From assembly GCA_020345725.1 (NCBI GenBank), contig CP070767.1, positions 1,782,276 to 1,829,779 of the forward strand: a stretch of DNA of 47,504 nucleotides, read 5' to 3'. The stretch's first letter is position 1. Every line of letters starts with the position of its first letter. Below, piece by piece: positions 6,722 through 45,700 of the stretch. The stretch comes from Methanobacteriota archaeon (lineage in GTDB: Archaea > Thermoplasmatota > Thermoplasmata > RBG-16-68-12 > SOIM01). The notes below the pieces were generated by a model. It had not been told where the DNA came from. It was given only the letters and a program-made list of their open reading frames with translations, and searched no databases. Position numbers and translations under genes: made by a program.

Positions 6722-6735
6722 TTCATTCTCGCGCC

Positions 6736-17300: not shown

Positions 17301-20300
17301 CACGGGACGGCCATGGCTTCGGTAATCGCCGCTCAGGGCGTCATAGGGGCTACGCCGGATGAGAAAATAATGGGTGTTGCACCGGGGGCCAAGTTCATAA
17401 TTCTTGCCAACACAAGGGATGAGATAGAGCACTCCTGGAACTTCGCGGTGGAAGGTTATGACGGCAAGATAGCCACTGGAGATGAAGCCCAGATAATACT
17501 CAATGCGTTCAACTATCCAAGAGTCGTGGAAAAGGGCTGGGATCGCTATTCCAGAAAAGTGGACGAGATGTCGATGGTATATGGCAAGGAAAAGAACATC
17601 TTCGTCGGACCGGCCGGAGATTATGGTTGGGGTTACGGAACAGTTGCCTCACCGAACGCTGCTCCAGGTACCGTAACGGTGGGCAGGGCGAGCGACTTCT
17701 CCTATTGGGCAGGAGGGCTTGAAGGACCGAATCCGCACTATGGTGATGTTGAGATATCCTCTTCGAGAGGACCGACTCCGGTAGGCATTTCCAAGCCAGA
17801 TGTAGTTGCCATTGGCTCAGGAAGAATCGATATTCCGCTCTTCAATAAGATGGTCTCTGATGGTACGACCGCAAAACAACTTGTTCCAACCAAAGGTTCG
17901 GACATCTCGGCAGCATCCGTGACAGGCGTCCTGGCGCTGATATATGAAGCTTACAAATCGAAGCATGGTGTCATCCCCACCGCTACCGAAGCAAAGGAAA
18001 TACTGATGTCCGGAGCGGATGATATCAGCTATGACACGCTATCTCAGGGTGCTGGATTCGTGAATGCCACAAGAAGTGTCTCAATAGCCCTGGGCAATGG
18101 AGGGTTGGCCGTCTCACCATCGACTTTCTCTTACGGTTATTTCCTCGGTAAGAGATATCCATCGTTCGCCAACATTCTCGCTGCTGGGGACACGGATGTC
18201 AAGCAGTTCACGCTTGAGAACAGTGGAAGCACTCCGACGAGTGCAGTTGTGAGCACGACCATCTTCAACAACACTGGGTATTACAATTTCACAACCAACA
18301 ACACTGTGGACACATACGCAACAGATGGAGAGATAATATTCTGGATCAACTCATCTGGAGTGTGGAAGGTAAAGGATGAAGGAATGGGCGTCTATAACGT
18401 AACTAGCCAGGTAACTCCCTACGACGCGAGTCTGTGGAATAACGCAGATTTGGTGAAGATCACTGCCTACAGTTCCTATGAAATGATGGTGAAGCTTGGA
18501 GGCGTTTCTCCCACAGGGCGCAAGACGTACGTCCAGAACTACTCATTCACAATGAAGGTCTATGATTGGAACAATGTCAGTATCGATCCATTCCCGAACC
18601 CTGAGGCATATCCAACAGAGCTCAACACAATAGCAGAGGTGCACAGCGAAGCGAACTACGTATTGGGCGTAGACCCGATGACAAACTACTTTGAGGCAAG
18701 GATTCACGATCCTGCAGCAAGGATTGATGATGGGCTCGTGGTCGTCATAGAGCCTTGGGATGAGAGGCCCGATGAGGATTATACGTGGGAGATCTTGATC
18801 GAGACATATGAGAAGGTCAACTGGCCTTGGCTGAATATCACTCCAATAACACCCATAAACATACCAGCATCAGGACAGGCCACCTTTGACGCGACCATGC
18901 GAGTACCCACGAACGCAATGGTCGGTTCGTACGAAGGAGCCATCACAGTAGCCGATACTGGAAGCGGGAAGAACATCACAATACCCATCCTCGTGAACGT
19001 GGCAATGAACTCACCCAATGTGAGATTCGGAGGGGTCAACGGCACATCAGATCTTTATGACAACAACAGGATCTTCGGAGGATACGAGAAAGGCATGAGG
19101 GGATCTACCAGGCTAGCTAGGCCCTATACTGGCGACTGGAGGTTCTATTACTTCAACATCCCAGATGCCGGATTCTTCAAGAGTGCTGGACTGAAACTGT
19201 GGATAGAGGGAAATTGGACGCTCAAGCCTTCGGACATGGACTTCTACATACTCGGATACAGGGCTCCCAACGAGAACGTGACAAGATACGGGCCATACTA
19301 TCTGGGAGTTCTCGGGAAGAGCGAGGAGGCCAGGGAACCGGGATTCGAAACGAACACCAACGAAAGTTCGGAAGTGATAGCGTTCGATATGAAGACTGGA
19401 ATCAATGTTCTCGCACTGCATGGTGTCATACTCAACGGCAGCAAGCCATTTGAGTTCGTATTTGGTGGAGGCGGAGGATGGATCCAGGTCACTCCTCCGG
19501 AAATCAGAGAACGAAGAAGCGTGAGATACGGGCAGAAAGATCTGAGAATCATTTCCAATATGGACTTCACGGAAGGGATGACAGCTTCGGCTGTTGGTCC
19601 TGCTATAACAGAGAGCTACAGGGAAGTGGAAATCGAGCAAGACTACCAGACCTGGTGGCAGTTCGACAACTGGGGCGAGTACCTGATGAGAGGCAGCTAC
19701 ACCTGGATCATCAATGTCTCCAATGCCTACATCCTGGACGTCCACATAGTCGGAGATGACAAGGCTCCAGATCTGGACTTAGGTGTCTTCACCGATGAGA
19801 ACTTGGACGGAGAGCTGGAACTCGAAGAAGTCAAGGACATCTATTGCGTTAAGATAGGCGGAACGAAATGGGATTACGATGCGGACGCAGATGCTGACGA
19901 AAGGGTAGTTTGGATACAACCTCCAGACGGACAATACATAATCAAGGTCTTAGGATTCGACATTAACGGAAAATTCGGCCATTTCGACATTGACATTGCA
20001 ATCACACTGGGATCAGGAGAGGAAGGATACACCATCGCAGGTACTGGACCTGACGACATCATTATCGGAACAGAAGGAGGGCTCTTGCGTCTCACACCCG
20101 TGGGAGTGACCATGCATTGGAATCTCCAAGGAAGCACGCCACCAGGAGAATATGGAGGAGCGGTGATGATTGGTACACCACAGGCGCCTACCATAGTCAT
20201 CGTACCCGTCACAATAATATACGACCCAGATCCACCAGAGATCATCAGCTTTGCTCTCAGTGCCACCGGATATGAGATCGAGGTGATGACCAATAGAACG

Positions 20301-23399: not shown

Positions 23400-24272
23400 A
23401 TGAAAAGAGCTGCAGTTTACGCCAGAGTTTCTACGGAAGACCAGGCCAAGGAAGGATACTCGCTGGACGCCCAGAAGGACCGGTTGAGAGCATACTGCCA
23501 GGCTAAAGGTTGGGAGATTGCCAGTGAATACATAGACGACGGACATTCTGGAAGAGATACGAAGAGGCCAGCCTATCAAAGAATGCTTGAGGATAAGGAC
23601 GATTGGGACACCATTCTCGTAATCAAAATGGACAGGATCCACAGGAACAGCAAGAACTTCATGGAGATGATGGACGACCTCAAGAGGTGGGGCAAGGAGT
23701 TCTCAAGCATGCAGGAGTCTCTGGACACCAGTACGGCAATGGGCAGATTTGTCATGGATATAATACAGAGGATTGCGCAGCTGGAGAGCGAGCAAATCGG
23801 CGAAAGAGTGTACATGGGGATGAAGCAGAAGGCTTCCACGGTGGGTGGACCGTTGGGAGGTTGTGCACCCTTTGGATATAATCAGCAGGATGGGGAGCTA
23901 GTTATTGACAAAACCAAAGCCGAAAGCGTGAGCCTGATCTTCAGTGAGTATCTGGATGGTCAGACCACCCAGAAAATCGCAGACATGCTGAATTCGAAAG
24001 GAGTCTCCACGAAGAAAGGAAGACCATGGACCAAACAGACAGTTGCTTGGATTCTGAAGAATCCGGTCTACTGCGGTTACATGGAATGGGACAACGTAGT
24101 CAGAAAGGGAGACCATGAGGGAATAATCGACGTCCAGACTTTCAATGAAGTTCAAAAGGAGCTCGTGAGAAGAATAAGAATATCTCCACAGAAATACGAA
24201 CCCAGATTGCTTCCGGATGAGTCAACTTCTATTCAGGAAGAACGTACTGTCGAGACATGCTCGGAAGCTTAG
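23400..24272 (+). CDS. serine recombinase (resolvase/invertase catalytic domain + recombinase domain)
   Basis: N-terminal AAVYARVSTEDQ (nucleophile Ser), then DDGHSGRDTKRPAYQRML, MDRIHRN, and a recombinase-domain block (PFGY...DGQTTQKIADMLNSKGVSTKKGRPWTKQTVAWILKNPVYCG). A TATA-like TTTTTATATT lies at 23356-23365. Confidence 0.9.
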   Translation: MKRAAVYARVSTEDQAKEGYSLDAQKDRLRAYCQAKGWEIASEYIDDGHSGRDTKRPAYQRMLEDKDDWDTILVIKMDRIHRNSKNFMEMMDDLKRWGKEFSSMQESLDTSTAMGRFVMDIIQRIAQLESEQIGERVYMGMKQKASTVGGPLGGCAPFGYNQQDGELVIDKTKAESVSLIFSEYLDGQTTQKIADMLNSKGVSTKKGRPWTKQTVAWILKNPVYCGYMEWDNVVRKGDHEGIIDVQTFNEVQKELVRRIRISPQKYEPRLLPDESTSIQEERTVETCSEA

Positions 24273-32889: not shown

Positions 32890-33942
32890 ATGAAATCGGA
32901 CTACACAACTGCAGAGAAGAAGGTTCTATATGGCCTGGTCAAGCATCCAACGCTCAATGACAGGGAATTGTCTGAGGCAATCGGCGTGAAACCATCCACA
33001 ACGACTGCCATTAGGAGACGTCTCAGAAAGGCGGAAGTATTCTCTACCAAGCGAATCCCGATGGCCGATAGACTGGGCTACGAGCTACTGGGCGTATTCT
33101 GCGGTAGGATGGGGCCAGGTACAAAAGATTCCGTCAAGAAGAAGTTCTTGGAAGCTGTTCACAACATGCCCCAGATCTTCTACACAATTGTGTCCTCGGA
33201 CAGTGTATTTGCAATTGGCTATTTCAAGAACTTCAGCGAATACAGGGCCTTTGCTGACGCTGCATGGGAGCAGTTCGGAGGATCAGCCGTGATTGAACCA
33301 GGCATGTGGTCCTGGGCCATATTCAGCTTTGAGAGGTCCAAGATTGCATACTTCTTCGATTATGGACCTCCTTTGAAGTACATTTTTAACATAAAGGAGA
33401 GAATGAAGTTCATGGAGTCAGCAGAAGAGCCTTCCTCGATTAAGTTGAGCAAGAAGGAGAAGGTAGTGCTTCAAGGGTTGGTGAACCTCCCAGAGTCATC
33501 AGACAAGGAAGTGGCTGAGAGAATAGGGGCATCCAGACAGGCAGTCTCGGCCATGAGAAAGAGATTCGAGAAGATGGGTGTGATGAAGACCCTCCGGGTG
33601 GTCAACTTGGAGAAGGTGGGATATCACCTGGTTGCGCTGGCACACAATCAATTCACTCCTCCAGCAACTCTCGAAGCTAGAAGAAAAGATCTAATGAAGA
33701 TCGCAGAGATGGTCCCCCAATTCTTGAGTGTGGTCAGCAACCCCGAGAGCATTCTTATGGCGTGTGCTACGAACTACGAGATGTATCACGAGGTCAGGAA
33801 TAGGGCCCTCAAATTGTATGCTGAAAAGGGATACCTGCGAGATGAACCCATGATGATGCTTTTCCCGCTTTCGGATACCCATACCATCAAGGACTTCGAC
33901 TTTGTGGGCTTCATGGAGAGGATTGTAGGAGAAGAGGAGTAG
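32890..33942 (+). CDS. double winged-HTH (Lrp/AsnC-like) transcriptional regulator, paralog 1
   Basis: 350 aa with an internal duplication. Unit 1: EKKVLYGLVKHPTLNDRELSEAIGVKPSTTTAIRRRLRKAEVFSTKRIPMADRLGYELL. Unit 2: EKVVLQGLVNLPESSDKEVAERIGASRQAVSAMRKRFEKMGVMKTLRVVNLEKVGYHLV. Each HTH is followed by a ~100-aa alpha/beta region. Confidence 0.65.
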   Translation: MKSDYTTAEKKVLYGLVKHPTLNDRELSEAIGVKPSTTTAIRRRLRKAEVFSTKRIPMADRLGYELLGVFCGRMGPGTKDSVKKKFLEAVHNMPQIFYTIVSSDSVFAIGYFKNFSEYRAFADAAWEQFGGSAVIEPGMWSWAIFSFERSKIAYFFDYGPPLKYIFNIKERMKFMESAEEPSSIKLSKKEKVVLQGLVNLPESSDKEVAERIGASRQAVSAMRKRFEKMGVMKTLRVVNLEKVGYHLVALAHNQFTPPATLEARRKDLMKIAEMVPQFLSVVSNPESILMACATNYEMYHEVRNRALKLYAEKGYLRDEPMMMLFPLSDTHTIKDFDFVGFMERIVGEEE

Positions 33943-34078: not shown

Positions 34079-35131
34079 ATGGCGTTAGATTTCACTTCCA
34101 CCGAGAAGATAGTCCTCTACGGCCTTGTGAAACATCCTACGCTCAATGACAGGCAACTGTCTGAACTAATCGGTGTGAAACCATCCACTACGACTGCCAT
34201 AAGGACACGTCTGAGGCAAAAAGATGTATTCCGCACAAAGCGGATACCAATCGCTCACAAGTTGGGATATGAACTGCTTGTGACCGTCTTTGGAAGTATG
34301 GAGCCTGGAGTGAAGGAGTCCGATAGGAAGAAGTTCTCGAAATGGATACGAGGAATCCCAGGTGTGTTCCTCTCCCTTGAATCATCGAACAGCATGTTCT
34401 TCACTGGCTACTTCAAGAACTTCAGCGAGTACAGGAGTGTTGCTGATGAAGCCTGGGAGAAGTTTGGCGAATCAACTCTATTCCAAACAGATAAGTGGTA
34501 TTGGCCCATGTTCAGCTTCGCAAGAAGCAAACTTGTGAACTTTTTTGACTACTCTTCGCCGCTGAGGTTCGCATTCAAGATAAAGGAGAAAGCAAAGGTT
34601 GAGCGAGAACGTGAGACGCTTTCCAAGGAAAGACTGACCAGAAAAGAGAGAACGGTTCTGCAGGGTCTGATCAACTATCCCGAGATATCTGACAAAGCCG
34701 TTGCCGAGAAGATAGGTGCATCCAGACAGGCCGTTGCGAGTATGAGAAAGAGATTCGAGGAAAAGGGAATCCTCCGTACAATCCGGATTGTGGACATGGA
34801 GAAGGTGGGCTATCAGATATTGGCTGTTGGAAGCATTCATTTTCAACCGAAAGCATCCCTAAATTCCAGGTGGATTGGAGTAGAGAGAACGGTGGAGACC
34901 GTTCCCATGATCCTGAATGTGGCAAGTAGTCCCGAGACAGTTGTGATGAGCTACATGAAGGACTATGAGGAATACCACGCGACCAAGAAGGAAGCATTGG
35001 AGTTCTATGCGAAGAGCGACTTCTACAGGGAGGAGCCTACCAGTTTGATATTCCCACTCTCAGATACTAAGATTACGAAAGATTTCGACTTCTCTAGATT
35101 CATGGAGAGATTCGTTCAAGAAGAAGACTAG
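34079..35131 (+). CDS. double winged-HTH (Lrp/AsnC-like) transcriptional regulator, paralog 2
   Basis: Also exactly 350 aa and collinear with 32890..33942 along the whole length, with long identical runs (VLYGLVKHPTLNDR, IGVKPSTTTAIR, GYFKNFSEYR, IGASRQAV, MRKRFE, FPLSDT, KDFDF). Confidence 0.65.
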   Translation: MALDFTSTEKIVLYGLVKHPTLNDRQLSELIGVKPSTTTAIRTRLRQKDVFRTKRIPIAHKLGYELLVTVFGSMEPGVKESDRKKFSKWIRGIPGVFLSLESSNSMFFTGYFKNFSEYRSVADEAWEKFGESTLFQTDKWYWPMFSFARSKLVNFFDYSSPLRFAFKIKEKAKVERERETLSKERLTRKERTVLQGLINYPEISDKAVAEKIGASRQAVASMRKRFEEKGILRTIRIVDMEKVGYQILAVGSIHFQPKASLNSRWIGVERTVETVPMILNVASSPETVVMSYMKDYEEYHATKKEALEFYAKSDFYREEPTSLIFPLSDTKITKDFDFSRFMERFVQEED

Positions 35132-38100
35132 GATAGCGTGTCGATGACAGAATCCACCTCTCTCTCCAGGAGTTTCAGTTGATTGGAGTCCAGGGTCGCG
35201 GGATTCACGTTCACTATCATCGTGGATTTGTTCATAGCAACCAAATCTCTGACGGACTGTAAAAGCCGAAGAACGATTATGAAGTTGTTGTTTGTGATCA
35301 GGTACTCCAGACCATCAAGTAGAACTACTCCACCAGTATCCGTCACGAATTTCTCCAGAGAGAGGCTGAGCTTCTCAAGATCCTTAGGTCTTACTGACTC
35401 CTCCTTCCCGATGTTGGATAACCATAGCAGGGTGGAATCGCCCATATCATGCATCTCAGTGACCTTATCTGGATATGTCCTTGTCACGCAAAGGCCTGGT
35501 CTGCCAGATTTCACCGTCGTGAGGAACATGTCGAATGCCCTCTCCGCCCTTTCTTCCTTGACCAAGTAGATGTGGGACGTTTCAAGTGCAACCTTCCCGA
35601 TCTCCTCCTCGAACGGTGGGACCTCAATCGCTTCCTCTGCTCCTACTTCGGCTTCGGAAATGGGTTCCTCTTCAGGGGCCTCCGCTTCTTCCTCGGTGAT
35701 GAAGACTGTACCGCACTGAGTACAATGAGTCGCATCTGCATTAGCTGGAGCATTGCAGAGGGGACAGACGAGTTCTTCCAGCCACTCCTCAAAGTAGACA
35801 GATATCTTCCGTGCCAGAGGAACGGTTATGCCCTCAATCTTAAGAAGCTCCTCTTCGGATGTGTTCGCCAGTGTATCCAGATCATAACCCAAGTTATTGA
35901 GCATCCTGGCTTTCTCCAGACCCAACCCGGGGATCTGCATTATCTCTTTCACCGCTTCCGAAATCTCTTCCTCTTCCTCCTTCTCAACCAGAGCAGAACC
36001 GCAACTATCGCATTCCTCAGCATCCAATGGAACCTGTGCTCCGCAACTGGGACACGCCTGCATCTCAGGCAGTAGAGAAGCACCGCAGCGATGACATTCT
36101 GTCGTTCCCATCTCGAGCTCTATCTCGCACACCGGGCACGTCATCTTCTCCTCGGCCCTCAGCTCTTCGGGCTGATCGAAGAATCTCCTAATCTTCCTGG
36201 CCTCGATCTCGTCAATCCCTTCAACTTGAACAAGCTCATCTATTGCCGCTTGCTGCAGTGAAAGTGGGCTGGCGTAACCAGCGTCAAAGAGAGACATTGC
36301 CTCCTTCTCATCTATTCCCGGAATGTTGGTGAATGCATCAATGGTCTGTTTCATGTAGAGCGGAGTGATAGCCAATCCTATGACCTCGCCTTCCACATTC
36401 CATTCCACTATGTACTCCTCAGTGAGCTCTTCCGGCACAAACTCAAAGCTCCTTGACCGAGTCTCAGTGGAAATGTAGTCCTCCCATTCCTCTAGCATCT
36501 TGGTGAGCTCCACCTTGACTTTGACCTGGGTTCTTATGAAATCCTCCACGTCCAGATCTATCTCCTTCCTCATCTGCTGGATTCTTCGCACGATTTCTCT
36601 CGAGAACCCCTCTGCCTTGATTTCTGGGGTTATTTCCATATCGATGTACAGGTCTCCTTGTTCAAAACCGATGCTAACCACATGCTCTGGGAGCCTTTCC
36701 GAGAATTCGACCATATCAGGTTCGATACGTATGACCTGGCCCTCTATGCCTATCTTGTAGACCCCTTTGTCGATGGCCTCTTTGACCTCATCGACGGGGC
36801 GACTTTCCAGCATAGTGGCAATCTTGCTCCACCACTGCTTGTAGACCCGTCCAATTGCTTCCACCTTCGGGCGGACGTTGAGGACCATACCATCCCAAGC
36901 CTCTCCAGGCCAAAGAACCTCGATCTCCTTGCTGTTCGTCTGGTCCATCAGGATTTCTTTCAGAGCCTCGACCGTCTTGGCCGTCTCTTCATCGTTAGCC
37001 TTCAAGACAATCTTCTTCACTGGCCATCGGAGCTTCATTCCCACCTTCTGCCTGGCCTTGGACACGAGCTCCACCAGTTCCTGGACGAGCGTCATTCTTT
37101 GTTCCAGTCTCTTATCTATCAATGACTCATCATAGGACGGCCAATCACACATGTGGACGGATAGCAATTCCGCGTCAAGGGATTGGTACATGGACTCCGA
37201 GATGTGGGGGGTCAGTGGAGCCAACACCTTTGCGATTGTGAGAAGCGATTCGTGCAGTGCCTTGTATGCACCGAACTTCTCTCTGGCATCGCCTTCAATC
37301 CAAGTTCTGTTGCGTATAAGCTTGATGTACCATCTGGATAGATCGTTAAGAATGAATTCTTCTACCGTTCTGCAGGCCTTGTGGATATTGAAGTCTTCAA
37401 TCTCGTTCTCGACCTTTGCCTTCAGTCCCTCTGTCTTCGAGAGCAGCCAATGATCTTCGGGTCTCATGCTTCCCGATAGTGAATCGATGGTCCAACTCGT
37501 GGGGTCGAACCCGTCCATTGCCATGTAGAGGGATCCGAACCTGTGAACATTCCAAAGGATGTTGAGTGTGCGGTTGGATGTACGGACATCCTCTTTGTTG
37601 AAATTCAGGTCTTCCCAGGGTGGATTGGTCTTCAGAAGGTAGAATCGCAGGGAATCCGCCCCGAACTCTTGAATGACATCGAAGGGGTCCACCACATTGC
37701 CGAGACTTTTTGACATGGGCTGACCCTTCAAATCTAGGATCCATCCGTGCATCAGAACGGCCTTGTAGGGAGACTCATCAAATGCAATCGTACCTGCAAC
37801 CAGAAGCGAATAGAACCAGCCTCGTGTCTGATCATGAGCCTCGGTAATCCACCTGCAAGGCCACCATTCCTTGTACTCCTTCTTCTTGGAAGGGTATTCA
37901 AGCTGGGCCCACATGCACACGCCTGAATCGAACCATACGTCCAGAACGTCGGGTGTTCTTCTCATCTCCGCACCGCATTCCTGGCAGTTGAAGGTGACAC
38001 TATCAATCCAGGGGCGGTGAAGGTCCATGTCATCGGTGTAGTTGTTCCCTTTGGAAAGGTCCTTGACCGAACCCACAATCAGTCTCTCCCCGCATTCACA

Positions 38101-39516
38101 ATCCCAGACCGGGACAGGTATGCCCCAATACCGCTGGCGTGAGATGCACCAGTCCCTGGCATTCTCTACCCAGTTCTTCTGCCTCGAGCTTCCTGCCCAA
38201 TCGGGGGTCCACTTGACCTTTTCCACTTCCTCAAGCATTATGTCCCGCACTTCAGTTGCTCTTATGAACCACTGGATTGAGGCCCGGTAGATAATTGGAG
38301 ATTTGCATCTCCAGCAGTGACCGTATCTGTGAGAGATCTTGCCATCATGAAAGAGCCACCTCTCCTTTCTAAGGTCGTCCATGATGAGACTGTTCGCTTC
38401 CCGGACGTGCTTGCCGAAATACTCTCCAGCATCTTCCGTGAAGTATCCACCTTCGTCCACGGGACAGAAGGGGGGAATCCCGTGTTCCTCGCCGACTTCG
38501 AAATCTTCCGGACCGTGTCCCGGCGCGATATGTACTACTCCTGTGTTCTCCTCGGTCACTATGTCCGAAGCAATGACTTTGTGAATCCACTCCCCCGTGA
38601 GCTGATTGTGATATGGGACCTTGGATGTCAGTGGATGGAAGTACTCCCAACCCACCAAGTCCGTTCCTTTCTTAATGTCAATTATCCTGAAATCCGTAGC
38701 ACCCACAAGAGAGGCCACCTCTTCCGCCCTATCCTTCATGAGCCAGAGGATCTCGTTCCTGTCCTCTATTGTCATCTCCACCTTAGCATACTCGAAATCC
38801 GGATGCACGGCAACAGCCATGTTCGCCGGCAAAGTCCAGGGCGTGGTTGTCCATATCAGAATGGCCTCTCCACCCCGTCCCTTCAGGAGGAACCTGACAA
38901 AGATGGAGTAGTCCTCCACATCTTCATATTCGATCTCGGCCTCAGCCAAGGCGGTCTCGCATCTGGCACACCAGGTAAGAACTCTAGTGTACTGTGTCAG
39001 AAGGTTCTTCTCATGGGCCTTCTTCAAGGTCCACCATGCCGCCTCGATGTAGCTGTTCCTTATCGTCAGGTAAGGATTGTCCCAGTCCATCCACACGCCA
39101 AGTGATGCGAACTGAGAGGTCATCCTGCCCTGGAGCTCGGAGGCAAATTCCCTGCAACTATTCACAAAGGACTCTATTCCGACCAGTTCCTCTATCTGCT
39201 TCTTATTGACAATGCTCAGCTTCTTCTCCACCTTGACCTCAATTGGGAGGCCGTGCATGTCAAAACCTGGCTGATCTCTCACGTTGAGACCTTGCATCCT
39301 CCTGTACCGGACTATCACATCCTTCAGGATTTTGTTGTAGGCAGTTCCCATGTGGATGGAGCCAGTTGTGTATGGTGGTCCGTCCACGAAGTAGTACTCC
39401 TTCCCTCTCTCTCTGTGAGATTTCGTCTTCTCATAGGCCCTTGAGAGCTTCCAAAAGTTTTGCACCTTTTTCTCCAATTCAACTGGAGAATACTCTTTCT
39501 CGGCTTGCTTTATCAT
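35128..39516 (-). CDS. ileS: isoleucyl-tRNA synthetase fused to a C-terminal HhH / zinc-ribbon / DUF835-like extension
   Basis: Start at ATG 39516 (GGGGGAGGATTGCG upstream). The track ORF runs on to 39744 across a tRNA gene, so that part is spurious. HIGH-type PPYTTGSIHMGTAYNK, KMSKS-type GQPMSKSLGN, the CP1 editing region, and the archaeal-type C-terminal domain. Then ~410 extra residues follow with no stop. Confidence 0.92.
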   Translation of the reverse strand: MIKQAEKEYSPVELEKKVQNFWKLSRAYEKTKSHRERGKEYYFVDGPPYTTGSIHMGTAYNKILKDVIVRYRRMQGLNVRDQPGFDMHGLPIEVKVEKKLSIVNKKQIEELVGIESFVNSCREFASELQGRMTSQFASLGVWMDWDNPYLTIRNSYIEAAWWTLKKAHEKNLLTQYTRVLTWCARCETALAEAEIEYEDVEDYSIFVRFLLKGRGGEAILIWTTTPWTLPANMAVAVHPDFEYAKVEMTIEDRNEILWLMKDRAEEVASLVGATDFRIIDIKKGTDLVGWEYFHPLTSKVPYHNQLTGEWIHKVIASDIVTEENTGVVHIAPGHGPEDFEVGEEHGIPPFCPVDEGGYFTEDAGEYFGKHVREANSLIMDDLRKERWLFHDGKISHRYGHCWRCKSPIIYRASIQWFIRATEVRDIMLEEVEKVKWTPDWAGSSRQKNWVENARDWCISRQRYWGIPVPVWDCECGERLIVGSVKDLSKGNNYTDDMDLHRPWIDSVTFNCQECGAEMRRTPDVLDVWFDSGVCMWAQLEYPSKKKEYKEWWPCRWITEAHDQTRGWFYSLLVAGTIAFDESPYKAVLMHGWILDLKGQPMSKSLGNVVDPFDVIQEFGADSLRFYLLKTNPPWEDLNFNKEDVRTSNRTLNILWNVHRFGSLYMAMDGFDPTSWTIDSLSGSMRPEDHWLLSKTEGLKAKVENEIEDFNIHKACRTVEEFILNDLSRWYIKLIRNRTWIEGDAREKFGAYKALHESLLTIAKVLAPLTPHISESMYQSLDAELLSVHMCDWPSYDESLIDKRLEQRMTLVQELVELVSKARQKVGMKLRWPVKKIVLKANDEETAKTVEALKEILMDQTNSKEIEVLWPGEAWDGMVLNVRPKVEAIGRVYKQWWSKIATMLESRPVDEVKEAIDKGVYKIGIEGQVIRIEPDMVEFSERLPEHVVSIGFEQGDLYIDMEITPEIKAEGFSREIVRRIQQMRKEIDLDVEDFIRTQVKVKVELTKMLEEWEDYISTETRSRSFEFVPEELTEEYIVEWNVEGEVIGLAITPLYMKQTIDAFTNIPGIDEKEAMSLFDAGYASPLSLQQAAIDELVQVEGIDEIEARKIRRFFDQPEELRAEEKMTCPVCEIELEMGTTECHRCGASLLPEMQACPSCGAQVPLDAEECDSCGSALVEKEEEEEISEAVKEIMQIPGLGLEKARMLNNLGYDLDTLANTSEEELLKIEGITVPLARKISVYFEEWLEELVCPLCNAPANADATHCTQCGTVFITEEEAEAPEEEPISEAEVGAEEAIEVPPFEEEIGKVALETSHIYLVKEERAERAFDMFLTTVKSGRPGLCVTRTYPDKVTEMHDMGDSTLLWLSNIGKEESVRPKDLEKLSLSLEKFVTDTGGVVLLDGLEYLITNNNFIIVLRLLQSVRDLVAMNKSTMIVNVNPATLDSNQLKLLEREVDSVIDTLS

Positions 39517-39607
39517 CGCAATCCTCCCCCTGGAGGTAAACCGGTGAGCCGCGAATTTGTCATCATCGCAACCCAGAGGTAGGACAGCGGTATGCTCAAT
39601 TTGACTT

Positions 39608-39612
39608 AAAAA
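39608..39612 (-). terminator. oligo-T tract downstream of tRNA-His
   Basis: The minus strand reads GGAAAGATTTTTAAG about 19 nt after the tRNA 3' end. Archaeal terminators are typically oligo-T runs. Confidence 0.3.
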
Positions 39613-39630
39613 TCTTTCCGACGATAGGAG

Positions 39631-39735
39631 GGCCGGGACCGAGAATTCCAACGTCATGGTGCGCCCAAGACGATTTTGAACTCGGGTCAAGGGATCCACA
39701 GTCCCTGAGGATAACCCAGCTACCCCACCCCGGCC
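39631..39735 (-). tRNA. tRNA-His (anticodon GTG) with a ~30-nt intron in the T-loop
   Basis: Hand fold of the minus strand.
- Acceptor: G-1 (39735), then GCCGGGG paired with TCCCGGC (39638-39632), and discriminator C73 (39631) opposite G-1.
- D-arm: U8, D-stem GGG/CCT, and a D-loop with A14, G18 G19 and A21.
- Anticodon arm: AGGGA-CTGTGGA-TCCCT, anticodon at 39699-39697.
- Variable loop: TGAC.
- T-arm: T-stem CCGAG (39685-39681) / CTCGG (39643-39639), enclosing 37 nt. These begin TTCAA and contain a stable hairpin, CGTCTTGG-GCGCA-CCATGACG.
The 105-nt gene equals a 75-nt tRNA plus 30 nt. Confidence 0.8.
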
Positions 39736-39757
39736 GCGGGACAAATAACCCCTTCAT

Positions 39758-39765
39758 GGATAAAG
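39758..39765 (-). promoter_or_regulatory. TATA-like box for tRNA-His
   Basis: The minus strand reads CTTTATCC, centred about 26 nt upstream of G-1. Confidence 0.35.
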
Positions 39766-39793
39766 AGTTTTTCTCAGAATGAAAGAGAGGAAT

Positions 39794-42700
39794 CTATGAT
39801 TCTGCTTCAGCCAATTCCTTGAGGTAGATCACAATCTCTTCATCACCAAGCTGCAACGCAAGTGAGAAAGCGTCCTCGTCTCCCTCCCAGTCCACAGGAC
39901 GGTACTTGAAAGAAGTGCATCGGACTTCTGTGATTATGTCGTCCATCCAGTCCTCTAGAAGAGCCTTCAGCTCATCACTGATGCAAAGCCTGATCTCCAC
40001 GGGAGTCTCTTCCTCAAGACCTGCCTCTCGCTTGGTATTTGCAATCTCCTTAATGATCTCGCCTGCAACTCCCTCGGCCCATAGTTCCTCGGTCTGCCTC
40101 TTGTCCACCCAGACCTTCCCCTTATCAAACTCGTACTCGGCCACACGCTCAGGAACGGATATCTCATAGGACACCATTGTGGAATCGAGGATGACCTGTT
40201 GACCCTCTATCCCAACTGCATAGCTACCTTTGTCAAGTCCAGATTTTATCTTCCACGGGGATTGGGAATTGAGCAGCATCTCGATCTTCCTGCTCCACTG
40301 AGGATACTTCTCCTTGATCTTGTCGCTATTGACGGTTATCTCCAGGTCCAGTCCATCCCAATCTTCACCTGGCCCTAGAACTACCAGTTCCTTGGTCCTC
40401 AAGTGGTCCTGTAGCACTCTCTTGAAGTCGGAAATCATTGTGGCGGAGCTGTCGTCTACCGATTTTATCGCCACCAGCAAGAGGGGCATCTTCTTGTCTA
40501 GATCGATGTCCTTTCGTGCCTGAGATACGCACTGAACGATATCACTCAAGGTTGCTATGTGTCCTCTGAATTCTGGACTGTCGGCCAGATCACCCAGGTC
40601 CTCTATGAACTCTGGAGATAGCTGGACATCTGGAGAGACAACACCCACACCCAAGTCTCTTGGTGGGACACCATCGCCCATATCAGATATGAATTCCCAT
40701 GCAGTGTCCATATCTTCGGTTTCCACGACTTTCCTGGCTTCTTCGATAATCTGGTGCGCACCCTCCGCACCGAATGTGGCGGTAACGAGTGACGACTGCA
40801 GGGATTCAGTGATTGCTTCCTTCTTATCCGTCACAAATATGAGTTCCTTGACAAATTCGTCAATTCCCGACAGTTCGCTCATCAATCCGCTCCAGCTTTC
40901 CAGAATCTGTCCGAACTGATCTTCAATTCTGGCAATGACTTCCAGAACATGTAGGGGCAGTAACATCGGTTCCTGACCAACAACTACTGCTGCGACACTC
41001 ACATACTTCCCCCTTTCCAAGAGTATCTTGCTCTCACCGAAATCCAACCTCTTTAGGCCCACCTTCTCTTTACTTCGGAAGGAGTCCTGCACGAAATCCT
41101 GTACGACGGAGAGCATGCCACTGAAGACATCCTCATCAATCTCCTCACGATACTTCCTGGTCTCGTGGATTATCAATCTTCCATCCCTGTGAATAAGGAA
41201 AACGTCCTCAACGAGGTATGTCCCTTGGGATTCCACTGAGACATTCTTCAGGTCGTCCAGGCGATATTCCTTTTCATCGAAATACCTTTGATAGGAGATC
41301 TTCACATCAATGGGGATGTCCCCTTCCCTGGCAGGTTTCAAGCCGACCTCCACTTCCTTCTTCTCTTTGGCGTCTATGTGAGGTATCTCTTCCAGGCCTT
41401 TCACTTCGAACTCGCCTGAAAGGTCTATGTTTAGGTTCCTTGCAGCAATATTGCCTTCATTTGCTACCTCGAATGTGTATTTGTTCCACGCATCCGTCTG
41501 GAGACCTTTTCTCGGCAACTGCAACTTGATGTCCGGAACCTTGCCCTTGAGATAATCTCCAATCTTCTTGGTAGCTGAACTCTCTGCCCTCTCAATGATG
41601 GTCCTGAGATTCTCAACATCCTCCGGAGCCAACTGTTGGGCATCCCCGAGTATCTTCTCTGCATCGGTAACCTCTATCCCAATCGATCTTGCTCTTTCGA
41701 CCATGTCGCGAACCGAATCCAAGTATCCATCCACCTCAGTTGCAGATAGGAGGTTGCGAGCTTCCACAAGGAGCTTACCAATCTCTTCAAGCGAATCCTG
41801 TGCTGCTTTGTCATCTCCCTTGTCCAAAGCCTCTTCCGCCTGACTGATCTTCTGCTCAACCTCGGCCACATCGATGCCCAAATCCTTCGCCCTTTTAGTC
41901 ATCTGGTCGAACTCGCTCAGCTTTGTCTTGAGGACTTCCGAGGTCAGACTCTCCTCAGTCTTCTTCATCGACTCCCGGAACAACTCCAGATACTTTTCGG
42001 CAGATTCAAAGTCGTCAACCAATCTGGCATCTCTGGCCTTCATCATCAGTTCCCCAGCTTCGCCAGTATCGAAGCCTTGGTTCTGGAGTCTTGTCATGAG
42101 TTCCTTTGCCTTGTCCAGTTGGGTCGCAATTTCGAGTTCTAGTTTCTTGGACTTGGCATCTCCCACGACCCTGTCTATCTTCCTTACTATCGAGTTCACT
42201 TCCCTGGCATCGAACTCTTCGGCTGCTTTGTCTGCATCATCCAACATCAGCTCGGCCTCGTCGATCTCCAAGCCTTCTTTGATGGCTTCCTTGATGGAAT
42301 TCTGAGCCTGCACCAGGGCGTTCTCCAACTGTCCCCGTATTCTGGCCTTTGATTTGGACGCGCTATCTGCAGCATCTTCCACGAACTTCCAAGCAGACGC
42401 ATAATCTTCCTCTTCCAGCAGTTTCTTGGCCTTGTGTAACAGGTCCTGGGCCTGAGAGACATCCGCACCTGCTGCCTGAGCCTCCCTCAGCATTTGGAGC
42501 GTGGACGTTATGACGCTCTCTTCCAGTTCTCCGATGTCCGCCTCTTCATCATCGCTCACGAATATAATCTTCTTGACGATTTCCTCGACACCTTCCATCT
42601 CGCCCAACAGCCCGCTCCAGTTATCCAGCACATCAGCGTACTTCTCTTCGATCTCTTTGACAATCTCGGCCATATAAAGGGGAAGTAGGGAGGGTTCATC

Positions 42701-45700
42701 TCCGGTGAGAACGGTTGCTAGATAGATGTAAAAGCCTCTTTCAATCACTATCTTGTTGTCGCCGAAATCCAGTCTACTGAGGCTCGTGCTCGACCTAGTC
42801 TGAAAAGAGTCTCTGACGAACTCCTGCATCACAGTCAGCATTCCACTGAAAATGTCATCGTCCACATCCTCTCTGAATTCCCGCGTTTCATGAAGAATCA
42901 GCCTTCCGTCATTGTGAACCAGGAAGACGTCATCCACCAGATAGGTGCCCAGTCTGCTGATGTTCAGAGTGGCATCATCTTTTGATTCGAAATTGGTCTC
43001 GTCAAATGGTCTTTTGAAGGAAACCTTAACATCCACAGGAAGCTCACCGTCCTGTCTGGGTTTGAGACCCACCTCCATCTTCTTCTTCTCCTGTGGAAGT
43101 AGACTGGAAATCTTCCTGAGTCCTTTGACCTCGAAGTCTCCCTTGAGGCTTACGTTCACGTCCTCTGCAGTTGTGTTCCCTTCGTTGGTCACTTCAAGAG
43201 TGTATTTGTTCCAGACATCTGATTGGACAGCTCCAACAGGAAGATTGACCATGATCTTTGGATATTTGCCGCGAAGGAACTGCTCGACACGACCGCGAGC
43301 CAGATCTTCCGATTGCTCTATCAACCTCAGAGCGCTTTCATAGTCATGTTCTGCGAAACTCTCCTGGGCAGTCCGGAGCATGTCCTGCAGCTCTTCCGCC
43401 CCCATTCCTGCCTCATCCGATTTTTCAATCAAACGTGTGATCATCTTGCTCTTCTCAACGAATTGCTGGATGAGCTTCTTGGATCTGGATTCCCCGAGCA
43501 TCTCCTTTGCGGTATCGGTGAGCATGGTGACTATTCCATAGTCCTCGGTTTCGTACGCGTCCTCGGCTTTCTTAAAGACGATTTCCGCTTCAGCGATTTC
43601 CCCGAGTCCACTGGTCTTTGCTTCTCCAATCATAATCTGGACTTCTTCCATCTCTCTCCTTGCCCTGTCGCTCAAGAATAACTTCTCGGCCTCAATCAAT
43701 GATCCTCTGGCCATTTCAGCCAGATTATTGAATTTGGAGTATTCCTTTGTATCAATTGCTGCACTCGCCTCTTCAATAAGATCCTCTGCTTCATCCACAT
43801 GTGCTCCGGTGGACCTTGCCAGTTCGATCCCTTTGATGATCGAACCTATGTTCTCCTTTGCTTTCCTCTCAATCAACTTCTCGGTTTCTTCCAGCACTTT
43901 CTGTGCCATTCTTGCGTATTCGATAGATGCTTGGTACTTCCCCTCATCGAAGTAGGTCTTGGCAGTGTGGAGCATTTCCTCAACTTGAGGAGCGGACACA
44001 CCAATCTCCTTCATCCTGTCCAATGAAGATTCCAATGTGTGAATGAATTCCTCCGACCCTTCTCTCAAGGAGGCCATTATTTCCTGCCCGAGCTCCTCAA
44101 TCGTAATGACCGCTTTCTCAGCCTCTTTGAGCTTGCCTTGTTCTGTGGCAGTCTCGGCCTCTGAGAGAAGCTTTTCGGCCTCCGAGACATCTATGTTGGC
44201 CTTCCTAGCGTCATCCAAAAGAAGTCTGACCTTTCCGAGCCTATCCTCTATCTCCTTTCTCCTGGCTATTGCTTCCTCCGGCACCCGTCTCTCCACCATG
44301 CGGTGGGCCGCCTTTGCCCTCTCTATGGATTCCAAGAAACTCTCTTCGCCCAGTAGGTTCTCGGCCGCAAGCAAAGTCTCTTCAACGTCTTCTATGTCGA
44401 ACCCATGAGTCCTGGCATGCATCATAGAGGACTTCGCTTTGAGAAGCAAGTTTTTCGCTCTCTTCTTGGCGAGCCTCACAATCGATTCGAATCTCTCTAC
44501 TTCCTCCATTAGGCCCTCTGCCCTTTCAATATCGCCACTCTCGAACGACCTTTCAATCTTCACCATCATTTCTTCAAGCTCGGACGTATCTTCTCCGTAT
44601 TCCGAGATATCCCTCACGAGATTCCTAAGTCGGAGTATGCGGCGCTGAATCCTATTCTTGCGCTCCTCCAACTCCCAAGCCTGCATGTCCTTCTCCAACA
44701 ATTCCTGAAGATCCCCGACCTTGTCGCTCATTATGGCCCTCTTGAAGTTCTTCAGAAGTTCTTTGGCTCCTACGAGTTCCTTCCCACCCTTGCTTGCCTT
44801 CTCGATAAGTGTTCCAACAGCCCCGACCAGTAGCTCTGTTTCTCTCTTCTTCCTTTCCCTTACGATCCATCTTCGGTTCCTCGTGACCAGGTTCTGCATC
44901 TTGGAGTACTTACCTTCACTCATCGCCTTACTGGCCTCTTCCAAAAGGTCTTCTCCGGCCGAGGTGTCCACACCCATCGATCTTAGTTCTTCCAGATCCA
45001 TGCGGACACTCTGTAGCTTGTCCTCCATCTTCTTCTTGAGCTTGGCATCGGATATCGCTTTCTTCAGACGCCGGGAGAGTTTCTGGACATCTGCGAATCT
45101 CTCGTCCAGAACGGCTTCTCTAGCCTCATTTAGCAACTCCCTCGCCCGAGTCACATCGAGTTCCAGCTTCTCAGACTTCGTGATCTGGTCCCGCATCTTG
45201 TCGATAACATCCTCCACTCTCTTCCTCTTCTTGGCTCGTCTGATTGCATTACGGATATTCTTGACATTCTCGGAAACCTCACCGAAATTTCGATCTTCCA
45301 GCGATGTCTGAGCGGCATGGAGGAACTCCATTGCTTCCGAGATATCCGCACCCATTTCGTTTGCCTGGTCGACGAAAGGAATGACGTTCCCAATCATTCT
45401 CTGGGAACGGAAGAACCTCTTCGCTGCCATCGTCTCCGTTCTTGCCTCTCGAACTAGACCCGGGATCTCTTGGAAGCTGGCTGACTTGAGTGCATTCTCA
45501 GCTTTTCCTATCAGCTCTGACGATACGGACACATCAGCTCCCTGGGCTTTTGCATCCTTTATGAGCGCTTTTGCATTCCTGATCAGAGTCCGCATCCTTT
45601 TCTCTTTCTTGGCATCTGCGGTTTTCTTAGTGCCCTGTTTTTCTGAAGCACTATCTTTGCTATCTGTCTCCGACCGAGATTTTGCACTCAATTTGATCAC
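39794..45700 (-). CDS. giant (1968 aa) cytoplasmic helical-repeat protein with duplicated Ig-like + alpha/beta modules and an IleRS-C-terminal-domain paralog
   Basis: One uninterrupted ORF with a GTG start and GGAGAC 10 nt upstream (an alternative ATG lies at codon 36). No signal peptide or TM segment was seen. Domain order is given in the findings. Confidence 0.85.
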   Translation of the reverse strand: MIKLSAKSRSETDSKDSASEKQGTKKTADAKKEKRMRTLIRNAKALIKDAKAQGADVSVSSELIGKAENALKSASFQEIPGLVREARTETMAAKRFFRSQRMIGNVIPFVDQANEMGADISEAMEFLHAAQTSLEDRNFGEVSENVKNIRNAIRRAKKRKRVEDVIDKMRDQITKSEKLELDVTRARELLNEAREAVLDERFADVQKLSRRLKKAISDAKLKKKMEDKLQSVRMDLEELRSMGVDTSAGEDLLEEASKAMSEGKYSKMQNLVTRNRRWIVRERKKRETELLVGAVGTLIEKASKGGKELVGAKELLKNFKRAIMSDKVGDLQELLEKDMQAWELEERKNRIQRRILRLRNLVRDISEYGEDTSELEEMMVKIERSFESGDIERAEGLMEEVERFESIVRLAKKRAKNLLLKAKSSMMHARTHGFDIEDVEETLLAAENLLGEESFLESIERAKAAHRMVERRVPEEAIARRKEIEDRLGKVRLLLDDARKANIDVSEAEKLLSEAETATEQGKLKEAEKAVITIEELGQEIMASLREGSEEFIHTLESSLDRMKEIGVSAPQVEEMLHTAKTYFDEGKYQASIEYARMAQKVLEETEKLIERKAKENIGSIIKGIELARSTGAHVDEAEDLIEEASAAIDTKEYSKFNNLAEMARGSLIEAEKLFLSDRARREMEEVQIMIGEAKTSGLGEIAEAEIVFKKAEDAYETEDYGIVTMLTDTAKEMLGESRSKKLIQQFVEKSKMITRLIEKSDEAGMGAEELQDMLRTAQESFAEHDYESALRLIEQSEDLARGRVEQFLRGKYPKIMVNLPVGAVQSDVWNKYTLEVTNEGNTTAEDVNVSLKGDFEVKGLRKISSLLPQEKKKMEVGLKPRQDGELPVDVKVSFKRPFDETNFESKDDATLNISRLGTYLVDDVFLVHNDGRLILHETREFREDVDDDIFSGMLTVMQEFVRDSFQTRSSTSLSRLDFGDNKIVIERGFYIYLATVLTGDEPSLLPLYMAEIVKEIEEKYADVLDNWSGLLGEMEGVEEIVKKIIFVSDDEEADIGELEESVITSTLQMLREAQAAGADVSQAQDLLHKAKKLLEEEDYASAWKFVEDAADSASKSKARIRGQLENALVQAQNSIKEAIKEGLEIDEAELMLDDADKAAEEFDAREVNSIVRKIDRVVGDAKSKKLELEIATQLDKAKELMTRLQNQGFDTGEAGELMMKARDARLVDDFESAEKYLELFRESMKKTEESLTSEVLKTKLSEFDQMTKRAKDLGIDVAEVEQKISQAEEALDKGDDKAAQDSLEEIGKLLVEARNLLSATEVDGYLDSVRDMVERARSIGIEVTDAEKILGDAQQLAPEDVENLRTIIERAESSATKKIGDYLKGKVPDIKLQLPRKGLQTDAWNKYTFEVANEGNIAARNLNIDLSGEFEVKGLEEIPHIDAKEKKEVEVGLKPAREGDIPIDVKISYQRYFDEKEYRLDDLKNVSVESQGTYLVEDVFLIHRDGRLIIHETRKYREEIDEDVFSGMLSVVQDFVQDSFRSKEKVGLKRLDFGESKILLERGKYVSVAAVVVGQEPMLLPLHVLEVIARIEDQFGQILESWSGLMSELSGIDEFVKELIFVTDKKEAITESLQSSLVTATFGAEGAHQIIEEARKVVETEDMDTAWEFISDMGDGVPPRDLGVGVVSPDVQLSPEFIEDLGDLADSPEFRGHIATLSDIVQCVSQARKDIDLDKKMPLLLVAIKSVDDSSATMISDFKRVLQDHLRTKELVVLGPGEDWDGLDLEITVNSDKIKEKYPQWSRKIEMLLNSQSPWKIKSGLDKGSYAVGIEGQQVILDSTMVSYEISVPERVAEYEFDKGKVWVDKRQTEELWAEGVAGEIIKEIANTKREAGLEEETPVEIRLCISDELKALLEDWMDDIITEVRCTSFKYRPVDWEGDEDAFSLALQLGDEEIVIYLKELAEAES
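40826..41545 (-). repeat. intragenic duplicated module B (aa 1386-1625 of the giant protein)
   Basis: Collinear with module A over ~240 aa, with shared blocks WNKYTFEV.NEGN, FEVKGL, EVGLKP, GTYLVEDVFLIHRDGRLIIHETR, DVFSGML, QDFVQDSF, RLDFGE and WSGL. Confidence 0.8.
42551..43270 (-). repeat. intragenic duplicated module A (aa 811-1050 of the giant protein)
   Basis: See module B. Roughly half or more of the residues are identical by eye. Confidence 0.8.

Follow-up and report, generated by a model that had tools for sequence, protein, structure and literature searches.

An appended isoleucyl-tRNA synthetase, a tRNA-His gene with a T-loop intron and a giant protein with an IleRS-like tail in a syntenic block of Thermoplasmata archaea

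Introduction

Domains derived from aminoacyl-tRNA synthetases are found free-standing or appended to other proteins, as in AlaX, YbaK, Trbp111/Arc1p/EMAPII and HisZ, and eukaryotic synthetases carry WHEP and UNE appendages. Appended domains are the usual way in which synthetases gain regulatory or non-translational roles and, to our knowledge, almost all known cases are eukaryotic. Here we analyse a 47,504-nucleotide stretch of a Thermoplasmata genome (Methanobacteriota archaeon, GenBank assembly GCA_020345725.1, contig CP070767.1, positions 1,782,276 to 1,829,779; hereafter the window) in which the gene for a giant repeat protein, a tRNA-His gene and the gene for an extended isoleucyl-tRNA synthetase (IleRS, encoded by ileS) follow one another on the minus strand. 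An earlier reading of this DNA, referred to below as the original prediction, had taken a C-terminal module shared by the giant protein and the synthetase as a sign that the two are functionally linked.

The closest described relatives of the synthetase are the archaeal and eukaryote-type enzymes (IleRS2/IleRS-A; structures 8wnd, 8c8v and 7d5c), with which it shares all catalytic, editing and Anticodon_1 domains and the ARD2-INS-ARD3 module, and from which it differs by its HMGT and PMSKS signatures and by approximately 410 additional C-terminal residues that comprise two helix-hairpin-helix (HhH) domains of the HhH2 type, three zinc ribbons and a DUF835 domain. This extension is in turn comparable to RadA/Rad51 and to the archaeal KaiC-like ATPases (FlaH/ArlH, PH0284 and KaiC), in which an N-terminal HhH is likewise followed by a RecA-fold alpha/beta core, whereas the IleRS tail is fused to a synthetase, contains inserted zinc ribbons and a second HhH2 and, judging from its sequence, lacks a Walker A P-loop and is thus predicted not to be an ATPase. 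Inactivated KaiC was reportedly defined by Makarova et al. in 2017. DUF835 itself is listed as an inactivated KaiC-like ('iKaiC') output domain of archaeal response regulators (PMC5847659), which was the sole mention of the domain that we found.

For the giant protein, the resemblance to AlaX, Trbp111 and HisZ lies in the reuse of a synthetase piece, here the anticodon-recognition module, outside the enzyme, just as the extended IleRS resembles the WHEP- and UNE-bearing enzymes in that non-catalytic domains are appended to a synthetase. The difference is that the donor is the ARD2-INS-ARD3 region of IleRS and the recipient a scaffold of 2000-2400 aa with Ig-like and longin-like units, and we know of no description of such a donation. 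The longin-like units share their beta-beta-alpha-beta-beta-beta-alpha-alpha topology and their Foldseek matches with longin and roadblock domains (AP sigma, COPI zeta, LAMTOR, MglB) and differ from them in having no significant Pfam match and in belonging to a family that mostly forms the tail of FG-GAP/PKD membrane proteins. Non-canonical archaeal tRNA introns, finally, are common in Thermoproteales and some DPANN; the tRNA-His intron described here is similarly short, lies outside position 37/38, places two 3-nt bulges across a 4-bp helix and is present or absent among orthologues, but it occurs in a Thermoplasmata lineage. In the searchable literature we found no description of the giant-IleRS domain combination, of the appended IleRS or of the T-loop intron, and no paper describing the IleRS-HhH-DUF835 fusion, in agreement with the original prediction that no system of this composition had been described; the main text of a 2026 survey of IleRS C-terminal remodelling mentions neither extensions, fusions, helix-hairpin, Thermoplasmata nor Methanomassiliicoccales.

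Results

Three neighbouring genes in an old syntenic block

Positions 35128-45700 hold two long minus-strand open reading frames (ORFs), one of 1968 aa and one that extends mechanically over 35128..39744 (1538 aa). The first 76 codons of the latter are not IleRS and the tRNA-His gene lies within this 5' extension; the true start of ileS is hence placed at the first ATG in frame, position 39516 (MIKQAEKEY...), which leaves a spacer of 277 nt, with the tRNA gene in it, between the giant gene and ileS (Table 1). Judged by the names given to close homologues, the organism belongs among uncultured Thermoplasmata/Methanomassiliicoccales. We favour, with moderate confidence, the view that these are three separately inherited and probably separately transcribed genes within an old syntenic block (Rpe - (giant) - FEN1 / tRNA-His - ileS - AcnX). 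The comparative data do not imply a dedicated giant-IleRS system, because the extended synthetase occurs without the giant, the giant occurs away from ileS, the block as a whole is syntenic and each gene appears to have its own signals.

Since the mechanical ORF does run through the tRNA gene, and some database entries are frameshifted or truncated (P0103, L092), one might suspect a chimeric assembly or a pseudogene artefact behind the juxtaposition, with the long ileS ORF a read-through of separate genes. This is extremely unlikely: the same gene order and the fused single ORF recur in many independent assemblies, megabase contigs included, and the composition is even, with a guanine-plus-cytosine (GC) content of 0.48-0.53 across the locus and its junctions. 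The order giant - tRNA-His - ileS was found in at least 11 independent assemblies (L001, L002, L008-L011, L013, L015-L018), which speaks against the chimeric junctions that the original prediction had named as a possible flaw.

Table 1. Features of the locus, in window coordinates
Feature	Position	Strand	Basis and remarks
ileS, IleRS with C-terminal extension	35128..39516	-	TIGR00392, Pfam; 1462 aa plus stop
DUF835 (PF05763), inactivated KaiC/RadA-like RecA-fold domain, as predicted	35143..35571	-	Pfam, Foldseek
Acidic, predicted-disordered linker	35572..35688	-	AlphaFold2 predicted local distance difference test (pLDDT) <50, tail residues 226-258
Third zinc ribbon, CPLC..CTQC	35713..35766	-	Motif scan
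(HhH)2 domain 2	35785..35934	-	Pfam HHH_2, aa 1195-1244
Two zinc ribbons, CPVC..CHRC and CPSC..CDSC	36001..36138	-	Pfam DZR, aa 1127-1173; Zn_Ribbon_1
(HhH)2 domain 1	36187..36336	-	Pfam HHH_5, aa 1061-1110; AlphaFold2 helices
Canonical IleRS body: catalytic, editing, Anticodon_1, ARD2-INS-ARD3/DUF5915	36352..39516	-	Pfam, TIGR00392
Anti-Shine-Dalgarno/Shine-Dalgarno (SD) hairpin CCUCC-AGGG-GGAGG, directly upstream of the start codon	39523..39536	-	Read from sequence
ileS leader hairpin, 8-bp stem, 11-nt loop YGAYGANNAAA	39547..39573	-	RNAalifold
TATA-like box TTTTTAA with GAAAG stretch resembling a B recognition element (BRE), putative ileS promoter	39606..39612	-	Sequence reading; putative
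tRNA-His(GUG) gene	39631..39735	-	Encoded G-1 (39735), discriminator C73 (39631), CCA not encoded
tRNA intron, 30 nt, position 59/60 in the T-loop	39645..39674	-	Bulge-helix-bulge
TATA-like box TTTATC after an A-rich BRE-like stretch	39759..39764	-	Read from sequence; putative
Giant repeat protein gene	39794..45700	-	ORF, 1968 aa from GTG 45700; full-length homologue family
C-terminal domain homologous to IleRS ARD2-INS-ARD3 (DUF5915)	39797..40558	-	BLASTP, alignment, profile
Longin-like alpha/beta module, copy 2	40814..41236	-	51% identical to copy 1; profile match
CARDB-type Ig-like domain, copy 2	41252..41542	-	50% identical to copy 1
Second helical repeat region, ~5 repeats	41531..42493	-	Self-BLAST, motif spacing
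Longin-like alpha/beta module, copy 1	42536..42961	-	AlphaFold2, Foldseek, own-profile match
CARDB-type Ig-like beta-sandwich, copy 1	42977..43267	-	Pfam CARDB; AlphaFold2 beta-sandwich
N-terminal helical region, ~12 repeats of ~63 aa	43301..45595	-	Self-BLAST; motif ..A...G.D.SEAE.LL..A...L..G.Y..A

A complete IleRS continues into a RadA/KaiC-like tail

The body of the enzyme scored 962 bits against the TIGR00392 ileS model (cut-off 621) over residues 6-849, and Pfam placed tRNA-synt_1 at 18-638, Anticodon_1 at 688-836 and DUF5915, the ARD2-INS-ARD3 anticodon-recognition module of type-2 IleRS, at 854-1050. ARD1 of IleRS reads A35 and U36 of the anticodon, and in Priestia megaterium IleRS2 (PmIleRS2) the G34 pocket is formed by Q961, R964, K965 and L969 (bioRxiv 10.64898/2026.02.03.703510). 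All four residues are matched in the window enzyme, whose QQMRKEIDL segment aligns with them and leaves the G34 pocket intact. The catalytic signatures read HMGT and PMSKS (at ~39360-39400 and ~37700), with the second lysine retained, and such variants are found throughout the lineage (L008-L087), where H[LMI]GT stands for HIGH and [QL]PMSKS for KMSKS. Because the variant signatures are lineage-wide, the window IleRS is probably active.

Downstream of the body, the original prediction had read HhH motifs, three zinc ribbons and a DUF835-like domain, all of which were borne out by Pfam and by CxxC motifs, with the HhH motifs resolving into two (HhH)2 domains. The three CxxC...CxxC ribbons occupy aa 1127-1144, 1155-1172 and 1251-1268, and DUF835, at aa 1322-1453, scored 110.4 bits (cut-off 33.1). 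We modelled the 413-aa tail with AlphaFold2 on a 28-sequence alignment (mean pLDDT 86); the model shows two bundles of HhH, ribbons formed by beta hairpins, an acidic linker that is disordered and a domain of alternating beta strands and alpha helices (pLDDT >90). When compared with the PDB by Foldseek, this model matched RAD51/RadA/Dmc1 over ~300 columns that include HhH and core, as well as FlaH (4yds), PH0284 (2dr3) and KaiC (3k0c) over 165-172 columns at a root-mean-square deviation of ~4 A, and NCBIfam RadA models touch the HhH region; a PDB sequence search with DUF835 gave no match. The motifs RPKDLEKL, LDGLEYLxTNNNF and LLEREVD are invariant in DUF835 despite an overall identity of 33-44%. 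The stretch after strand 1 reads KEERAERA (IYLVKEERAERA), and neither a Walker A motif (GxxxxGK[ST]) nor a glycine-rich loop was found after it in any of the 28 aligned tails. On the strength of the RecA-like fold matches, the missing P-loop and the iKaiC listing, the modelled tail is most aptly described as a RadA/KaiC-like module that is catalytically dead and carries extra HhH and zinc-ribbon inserts.

The extended synthetase is the normal ileS of its lineage

We scanned one genome per GTDB species, which yielded 193 matching relatives, and inspected the best 80. A DUF835 tail lay downstream of the ileS sequence in 80/80, and the core, ARD and HhH regions were contiguous with DUF835 wherever the contig reached far enough. 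Carriers comprise Methanomassiliicoccales, Methanomassiliicoccus spp. and other metagenome-assembled genomes of Thermoplasmata, and among them the fusion is seen as single ORFs 1429 aa and 1439 aa long. Searching proteins with the IleRS tail returned more than 100 matches, many of them with the architecture DUF5915 + HHH_5 + DUF835 and some named isoleucyl-tRNA synthetase by JGI. In at least 65 species-level genomes IleRS-DUF835 is encoded without a giant gene within 6.8 kb upstream. The extended form is thus what Methanomassiliicoccales and related Thermoplasmata normally have as ileS, and it is not particular to the candidate novel locus of the original prediction; among the best 80 matches all are fusions, most of them with no giant upstream.

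Stand-alone HhH-DUF835 proteins of ~240 aa (P0115, P0130) were considered as a 'Rosetta stone' precursor of the fusion and rejected as gene-calling artefacts, being explained by internal gene calls in a single 1439-aa ORF (L090) or by a frameshifted ileS (L092). At 2507-6711 of L092, a frameshift splits the ileS body from the DUF835 tail into overlapping ORFs of 1184 aa and 507 aa, and a garbled stretch in the alignment of P0103 suggests a frameshift there too; both are probably sequencing errors. On the strength of that stretch, entries of 600-650 aa that start inside Anticodon_1 (P0096, P0103) are read as broken ileS genes rather than split genes.

The giant protein family ends in an IleRS-derived tail

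The last ~255 aa of the giant protein had been proposed to be homologous to the C-terminal domain of IleRS, and the evidence upholds this: aa 1715-1966 of the giant align with aa 808-1061 of the neighbouring IleRS at 31% identity over 260 columns (BLASTP, E 6e-41), and NCBIfam places the tail on positions 787-979 of an IleRS (MupA) model. As a single sequence the tail found no match in a PDB sequence search; the ARD-tail profile reaches the solved IleRS structures 8wnd, 8c8v, 9w01 and 7d5c, as does the ARD of IleRS. With TIGR00392 and Pfam DUF835 also above their thresholds, the similarities on which the original prediction was built are not spurious.

Full-length homologues of the giant fall into three clades: that of the window, at 58-79% identity; a second, of 1880-1970 aa, at ~33%; and a third, of 2300-2420 aa, at 26-35%. 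All three end in an ARD-like tail; in total, 54 fetched proteins combine one or more of the alpha/beta modules described below with this tail. Giant tails show no variation in their structural core or in the INS-region motif GIEGQ..MV, and the motif is equally invariant in IleRS. At the G34 pocket, the basic pair and the leucine are kept and the glutamine is lost in all clades, with the window-clade sequence ANTKREAGL replacing Arg964 by lysine and the other clades reading R-K or R-R. This pattern suggests that the giant tail may keep RNA-backbone binding with relaxed base reading. On the simplest view, the tail goes back to an ancient event in which the 3' part of ileS was duplicated.

The same substitutions, namely the loss of the G34-reading glutamine in every clade and the change of Arg964 to lysine in the window clade, can also be taken to mean that the tail has lost RNA binding and been co-opted as a protein-interaction or structural domain, with the giant acting outside translation, for example as a cortical or cytoskeletal receptor adaptor. 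ARD1 is missing from the tail, the helical repeats and Ig-like and longin-like domains of the giant are typical of scaffolds, and the longin-like family is tied to membrane proteins, all of which fits such a role. We nevertheless think it unlikely, given that all three clades have kept the structural core and the basic pocket residues, that GIEGQ..MV is invariant in IleRS and giant tails alike, and that nothing points positively to a protein partner.

Two observations concern the N-terminus of the family: second-clade giants (L013, L015, L016 and L018, at ~800-1000) start with a zinc ribbon, CPGCQAKLEAGSRFCNHCG, and distant relatives (P0028-P0033) carry Prok-RING_1 (PF14446) according to a precomputed Pfam list. 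A zinc-binding head may be ancestral in the giants and lost in the window clade.

The giant contains two copies of a longin-like module found mostly on receptors

An alternative start of the giant gene, ATG 45595, gives the 1933-aa database entry P0001. The motif of the helical repeats recurs every 63-66 aa or at multiples of this, and an internal duplication (aa 629-1099 against aa 1206-1663, 37% identity, E 1e-99) underlies the two copies of the CARDB + module unit, the second of which is separated from the IleRS-like tail by a linker. Pfam CARDB (PF07705) scored 43.7 bits (cut-off 22.7) in two stretches, and no transmembrane or signal-like segment was found in the giant protein. An AlphaFold2 model of CARDB plus module (pLDDT 82) consists of a beta-sandwich and, by DSSP, the alpha/beta domain of longin-like topology given above. 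Foldseek matched this model with AP-1/AP-2 sigma, COPI zeta and a Ragulator roadblock protein (E 2.7e-5 to 4e-4) and also with two-domain adaptin appendages; the TM-scores of the module against AP sigma and COPI zeta, by target, were 0.5-0.58. No Pfam model matched the module significantly (Robl_LC7, E 0.072, in 1/14 members), and a PDB sequence search with the CARDB + module profile gave no match.

A profile search with the module over 1.84 billion representatives retrieved 4608 clusters (50% identity), and 3061 of these had E <= 1e-10. Most of the listed proteins that were checked have the module as their last ~130 residues, straight after a transmembrane helix, and several of these proteins have a hydrophobic N-terminus plus FG-GAP, PKD or Big domains; nearly module-only proteins of 135-160 aa and tandem-module proteins of ~570 aa also occur (among P0146-P0291). 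By its sequence contexts, the longin-like module appears to be a generic cytoplasmic domain of archaeal surface receptors. The original prediction had suggested that the alpha/beta modules of the giant might pair with DUF835 of IleRS. Since the module is mostly a generic receptor tail, in a family of more than 3000 clusters, such specific pairing is improbable.

Giant and ileS are neighbours in two of three clades

The order giant - tRNA-His - ileS holds in the window clade and in the second clade (L013/L015-L018), whose giant is ~33% identical. In the third clade the order is Rpe - small ORF - giant - FEN1 - DUF92, so that the giant adjoins FEN1 and not ileS, and Methanomassiliicoccales proper have Rpe - small ORF - FEN1 - ileS - AcnX with no giant in the row. 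Downstream of ileS, AcnX and the genes beyond it are syntenic in all groups compared. In high-GC soil lineages tRNA-His - ileS is preceded by an ornithine carbamoyltransferase gene. The GC content of the giant-FEN1 clade is similar to that of this soil clade (0.58-0.69), and the match in GC content, taken alone, hints that the two are the same organisms; the accessions of the two, when compared, showed no overlap. The simplest reading of these arrangements is that one old block once had giant, FEN1, tRNA-His and ileS as neighbours and was rearranged later.

The proposed link between the giant and IleRS is hence borne out in part: the homology of the shared module is genuine and the two genes adjoin in two clades, but adjacency does not hold wherever both genes exist, and the FEN1-side giants, the giant-less fusions and the synteny of the block do not bear out a functional tie or a general co-occurrence. 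Because the whole neighbourhood is syntenic in all these lineages, adjacency is no specific evidence of function. In its strongest form, the link would be a dedicated translation-linked complex of giant and extended IleRS, with the alpha/beta modules docking on DUF835 and the ARD tail bringing in tRNA-Ile or IleRS. Such a complex would account for the co-orientation and adjacency of the two genes in the window and L013/L015-L018 clades despite the low identity of the giants, for the universal retention of the ARD tail in the giant family and for the fact that the giant-bearing clades fall within the group whose IleRS carries DUF835, and it would gain if the giant-FEN1 clade and the high-GC soil clade, with its tRNA-His-ileS-DUF835 arrangement, were the same organisms. 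We consider it distinctly unlikely, because IleRS-DUF835 does without a nearby giant in so many species, a whole clade keeps the IleRS-derived tail on a giant beside FEN1, the synteny of the flanks reaches far beyond the giant-ileS pair, the size and receptor association of the module family make an IleRS-specific partner improbable, and tRNA-His and ileS carry promoter-like elements of their own.

The tRNA-His gene is interrupted by an intron in the T-loop

Neither ARAGORN nor Rfam at its gathering threshold reported a tRNA gene in the window, a false negative due to an intron in the T-loop, which hides tRNA-His from standard tRNA finders. With an E-value threshold, Rfam placed a tRNA with anticodon GUG at 39734..39662, a sub-threshold match (21.5 bits) whose T-arm and acceptor were broken. 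On reading the sequence we found the 3' strands of the acceptor (UCCCGGC-C) and of the T-stem (CUCGG) displaced 30 nt downstream. The insert AUCGUCUUGGGCGCACCAUGACGUUGGAAU (39674..39645) splits the T-loop UUCAAA|U after position 59, and once it is deleted in silico, ARAGORN recognises a canonical tRNA-His(gtg) of 75 nt. Intron-less tRNA-His orthologues upstream of ileS in seven other lineages read CCGAGTTCAAATCTCGG and miss exactly this insert, as the intron-containing tRNA-His of the original prediction would lead one to expect.

The T-stem serves as the outer helix of a bulge-helix-bulge, followed by the central 4-bp helix UUCA/UGGA, 3-nt bulges (AA|A and AU|U) and the inner helix CGUC/GACG. 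The window copy has one U-U beside the bulge; L002 has a strict hBHBh' form (CCGCA/UGCGG, UUCA/UGAA). L001 and L002 also have the intron, and both their anticodon stem and their intron helix show compensatory changes; the inner helix varies yet pairs in four clades (CGUC/GACG, CCGCA/UGCGG, GGAUCUCAG/CUGAGGUCC and GAAUCCCAG/CUGGGGUUC). As judged from these sequences, a real tRNA-His gene with a T-loop intron is secure, and splicing endonuclease would remove the 30 nt from the transcript. The TTTATC box lies ~27 nt upstream of G-1 and is kept in L001 and L002. The tRNA has no evident functional tie to the neighbouring genes. Separately, a partial second tRNA 3' half with a much longer T-arm insert and duplicated flanks lies downstream of the intron-less tRNA-His in L064 (~6290-6850), and looks like a local duplication involving the tRNA gene.

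A conserved hairpin in the ileS leader

At the place of the putative ileS promoter, TTTTAA, TTAAATA or TTTTAATAG is kept in 18 loci, and the T-run of this TATA-like box may also terminate the tRNA transcript. The promoter-like elements of the tRNA and of ileS, as far as they can be recognised, argue against an obligate operon. Between this box and the start codon, the leader hairpin, compared over 16 loci of several clades, pairs in 90.6% of cells, against 30-45% for controls with a slid partner strand, shows compensatory changes in 7/8 pairs and has a covariation score of 0.795 against <=0.19. Equivalent anti-SD/SD hairpins are present in all clades. No Rfam family corresponded to the leader, which gave chance-level C/D-box matches on the UGAUGA loop alone. 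By its conservation, the leader is a candidate cis-regulatory element of archaeal ileS. The loop holds GAU, the Ile anticodon, in most clades and GAC in the soil clade, because of which an anticodon-mimic operator is speculation only.

Neighbouring genes in the window

Two paralogous 350-aa proteins, encoded at 32890-33942 and 34079-35131 on the plus strand, converge on the 3' end of ileS, with an overlap between the stop of the second and the stop region of ileS. Each contains two winged-helix (MarR/TrmB/HTH_24) regions; they are found in the window clade and are absent from the L013 and soil clades. Further away, a serine recombinase (Resolvase + Recombinase domains; 23400-24272, plus strand) sits in a patch with a GC of 0.43-0.44, against ~0.50 elsewhere, and this dip at 23-25 kb may mark an integrated mobile element. 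The window also encodes a 2483-aa protein with WD40 repeats and subtilase, Big_13 and glucodextranase-B-like domains (14181-21632, plus strand) and a 1335-aa subtilase (8405-12412, minus strand), which were considered as kin of the 1968-aa giant and proved unrelated to it.

Discussion

Thus far, the anatomy of the locus, its homologies, folds and phyletic pattern and the tRNA intron have been described as observed; the binding partners of its proteins and any cross-talk between the giant and IleRS we infer. On the side of the synthetase, the HhH and zinc-ribbon segments would add non-specific nucleic-acid (tRNA) affinity, and the dead RecA-fold domain would offer a surface for oligomerisation or for docking, for instance with KaiC-family ATPases, with the outcome that IleRS would be tethered or regulated within a higher-order assembly. 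The giant would be a soluble cytoplasmic scaffold of 63-aa helical repeats and two CARDB + longin-like units, the latter of which may dimerise mutually or with identical modules on the cytoplasmic tails of membrane receptors, and its IleRS-derived tail may bind the anticodon arm of a tRNA, or some other structured RNA, with a relaxed specificity for bases. One could join these parts into a single pathway in which the giant is a cytoplasmic adaptor that couples envelope sensing to isoleucine charging, its longin-like units plugging into FG-GAP/PKD receptor modules, its ARD tail capturing tRNA-Ile or docking on IleRS-iKaiC, iKaiC acting as the receiving hub and the leader hairpin, with its GAU loop, as an autoregulatory operator; we regard this as a very improbable conjecture.

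Several points weigh against our preferred view of separately inherited genes and the functions that we assign to their products. The adjacency of giant and ileS at ~33% giant identity could reflect selection for linkage and not mere inertia, and the promoter assignments were made by eye from the sequence. Every binding function is deduced from domain identity; the giant has an isolated ARD2-ARD3 without ARD1, so that its tRNA binding may be weak or absent. The Foldseek TM-scores are modest (0.3-0.6) for both models, and the multi-domain models align in part.

Seen as separate genes of an old block, the three neighbours and their parts are each of wider interest. The longin-like module is a very large and unnamed domain family without a Pfam model. 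The structured leader of ileS would join a small number of candidate cis-regulatory RNAs from archaea. The giants form a large scaffold family that appears to have borrowed the anticodon-recognition module of IleRS, and, like the extended IleRS, provide clonable targets for studying the organisation or regulation of aminoacylation in archaea. Finally, the extended IleRS provides an order-wide archaeal case, in a lineage that includes Methanomassiliicoccales, of a housekeeping synthetase joined to what is best described as a dead RadA/KaiC-like module.

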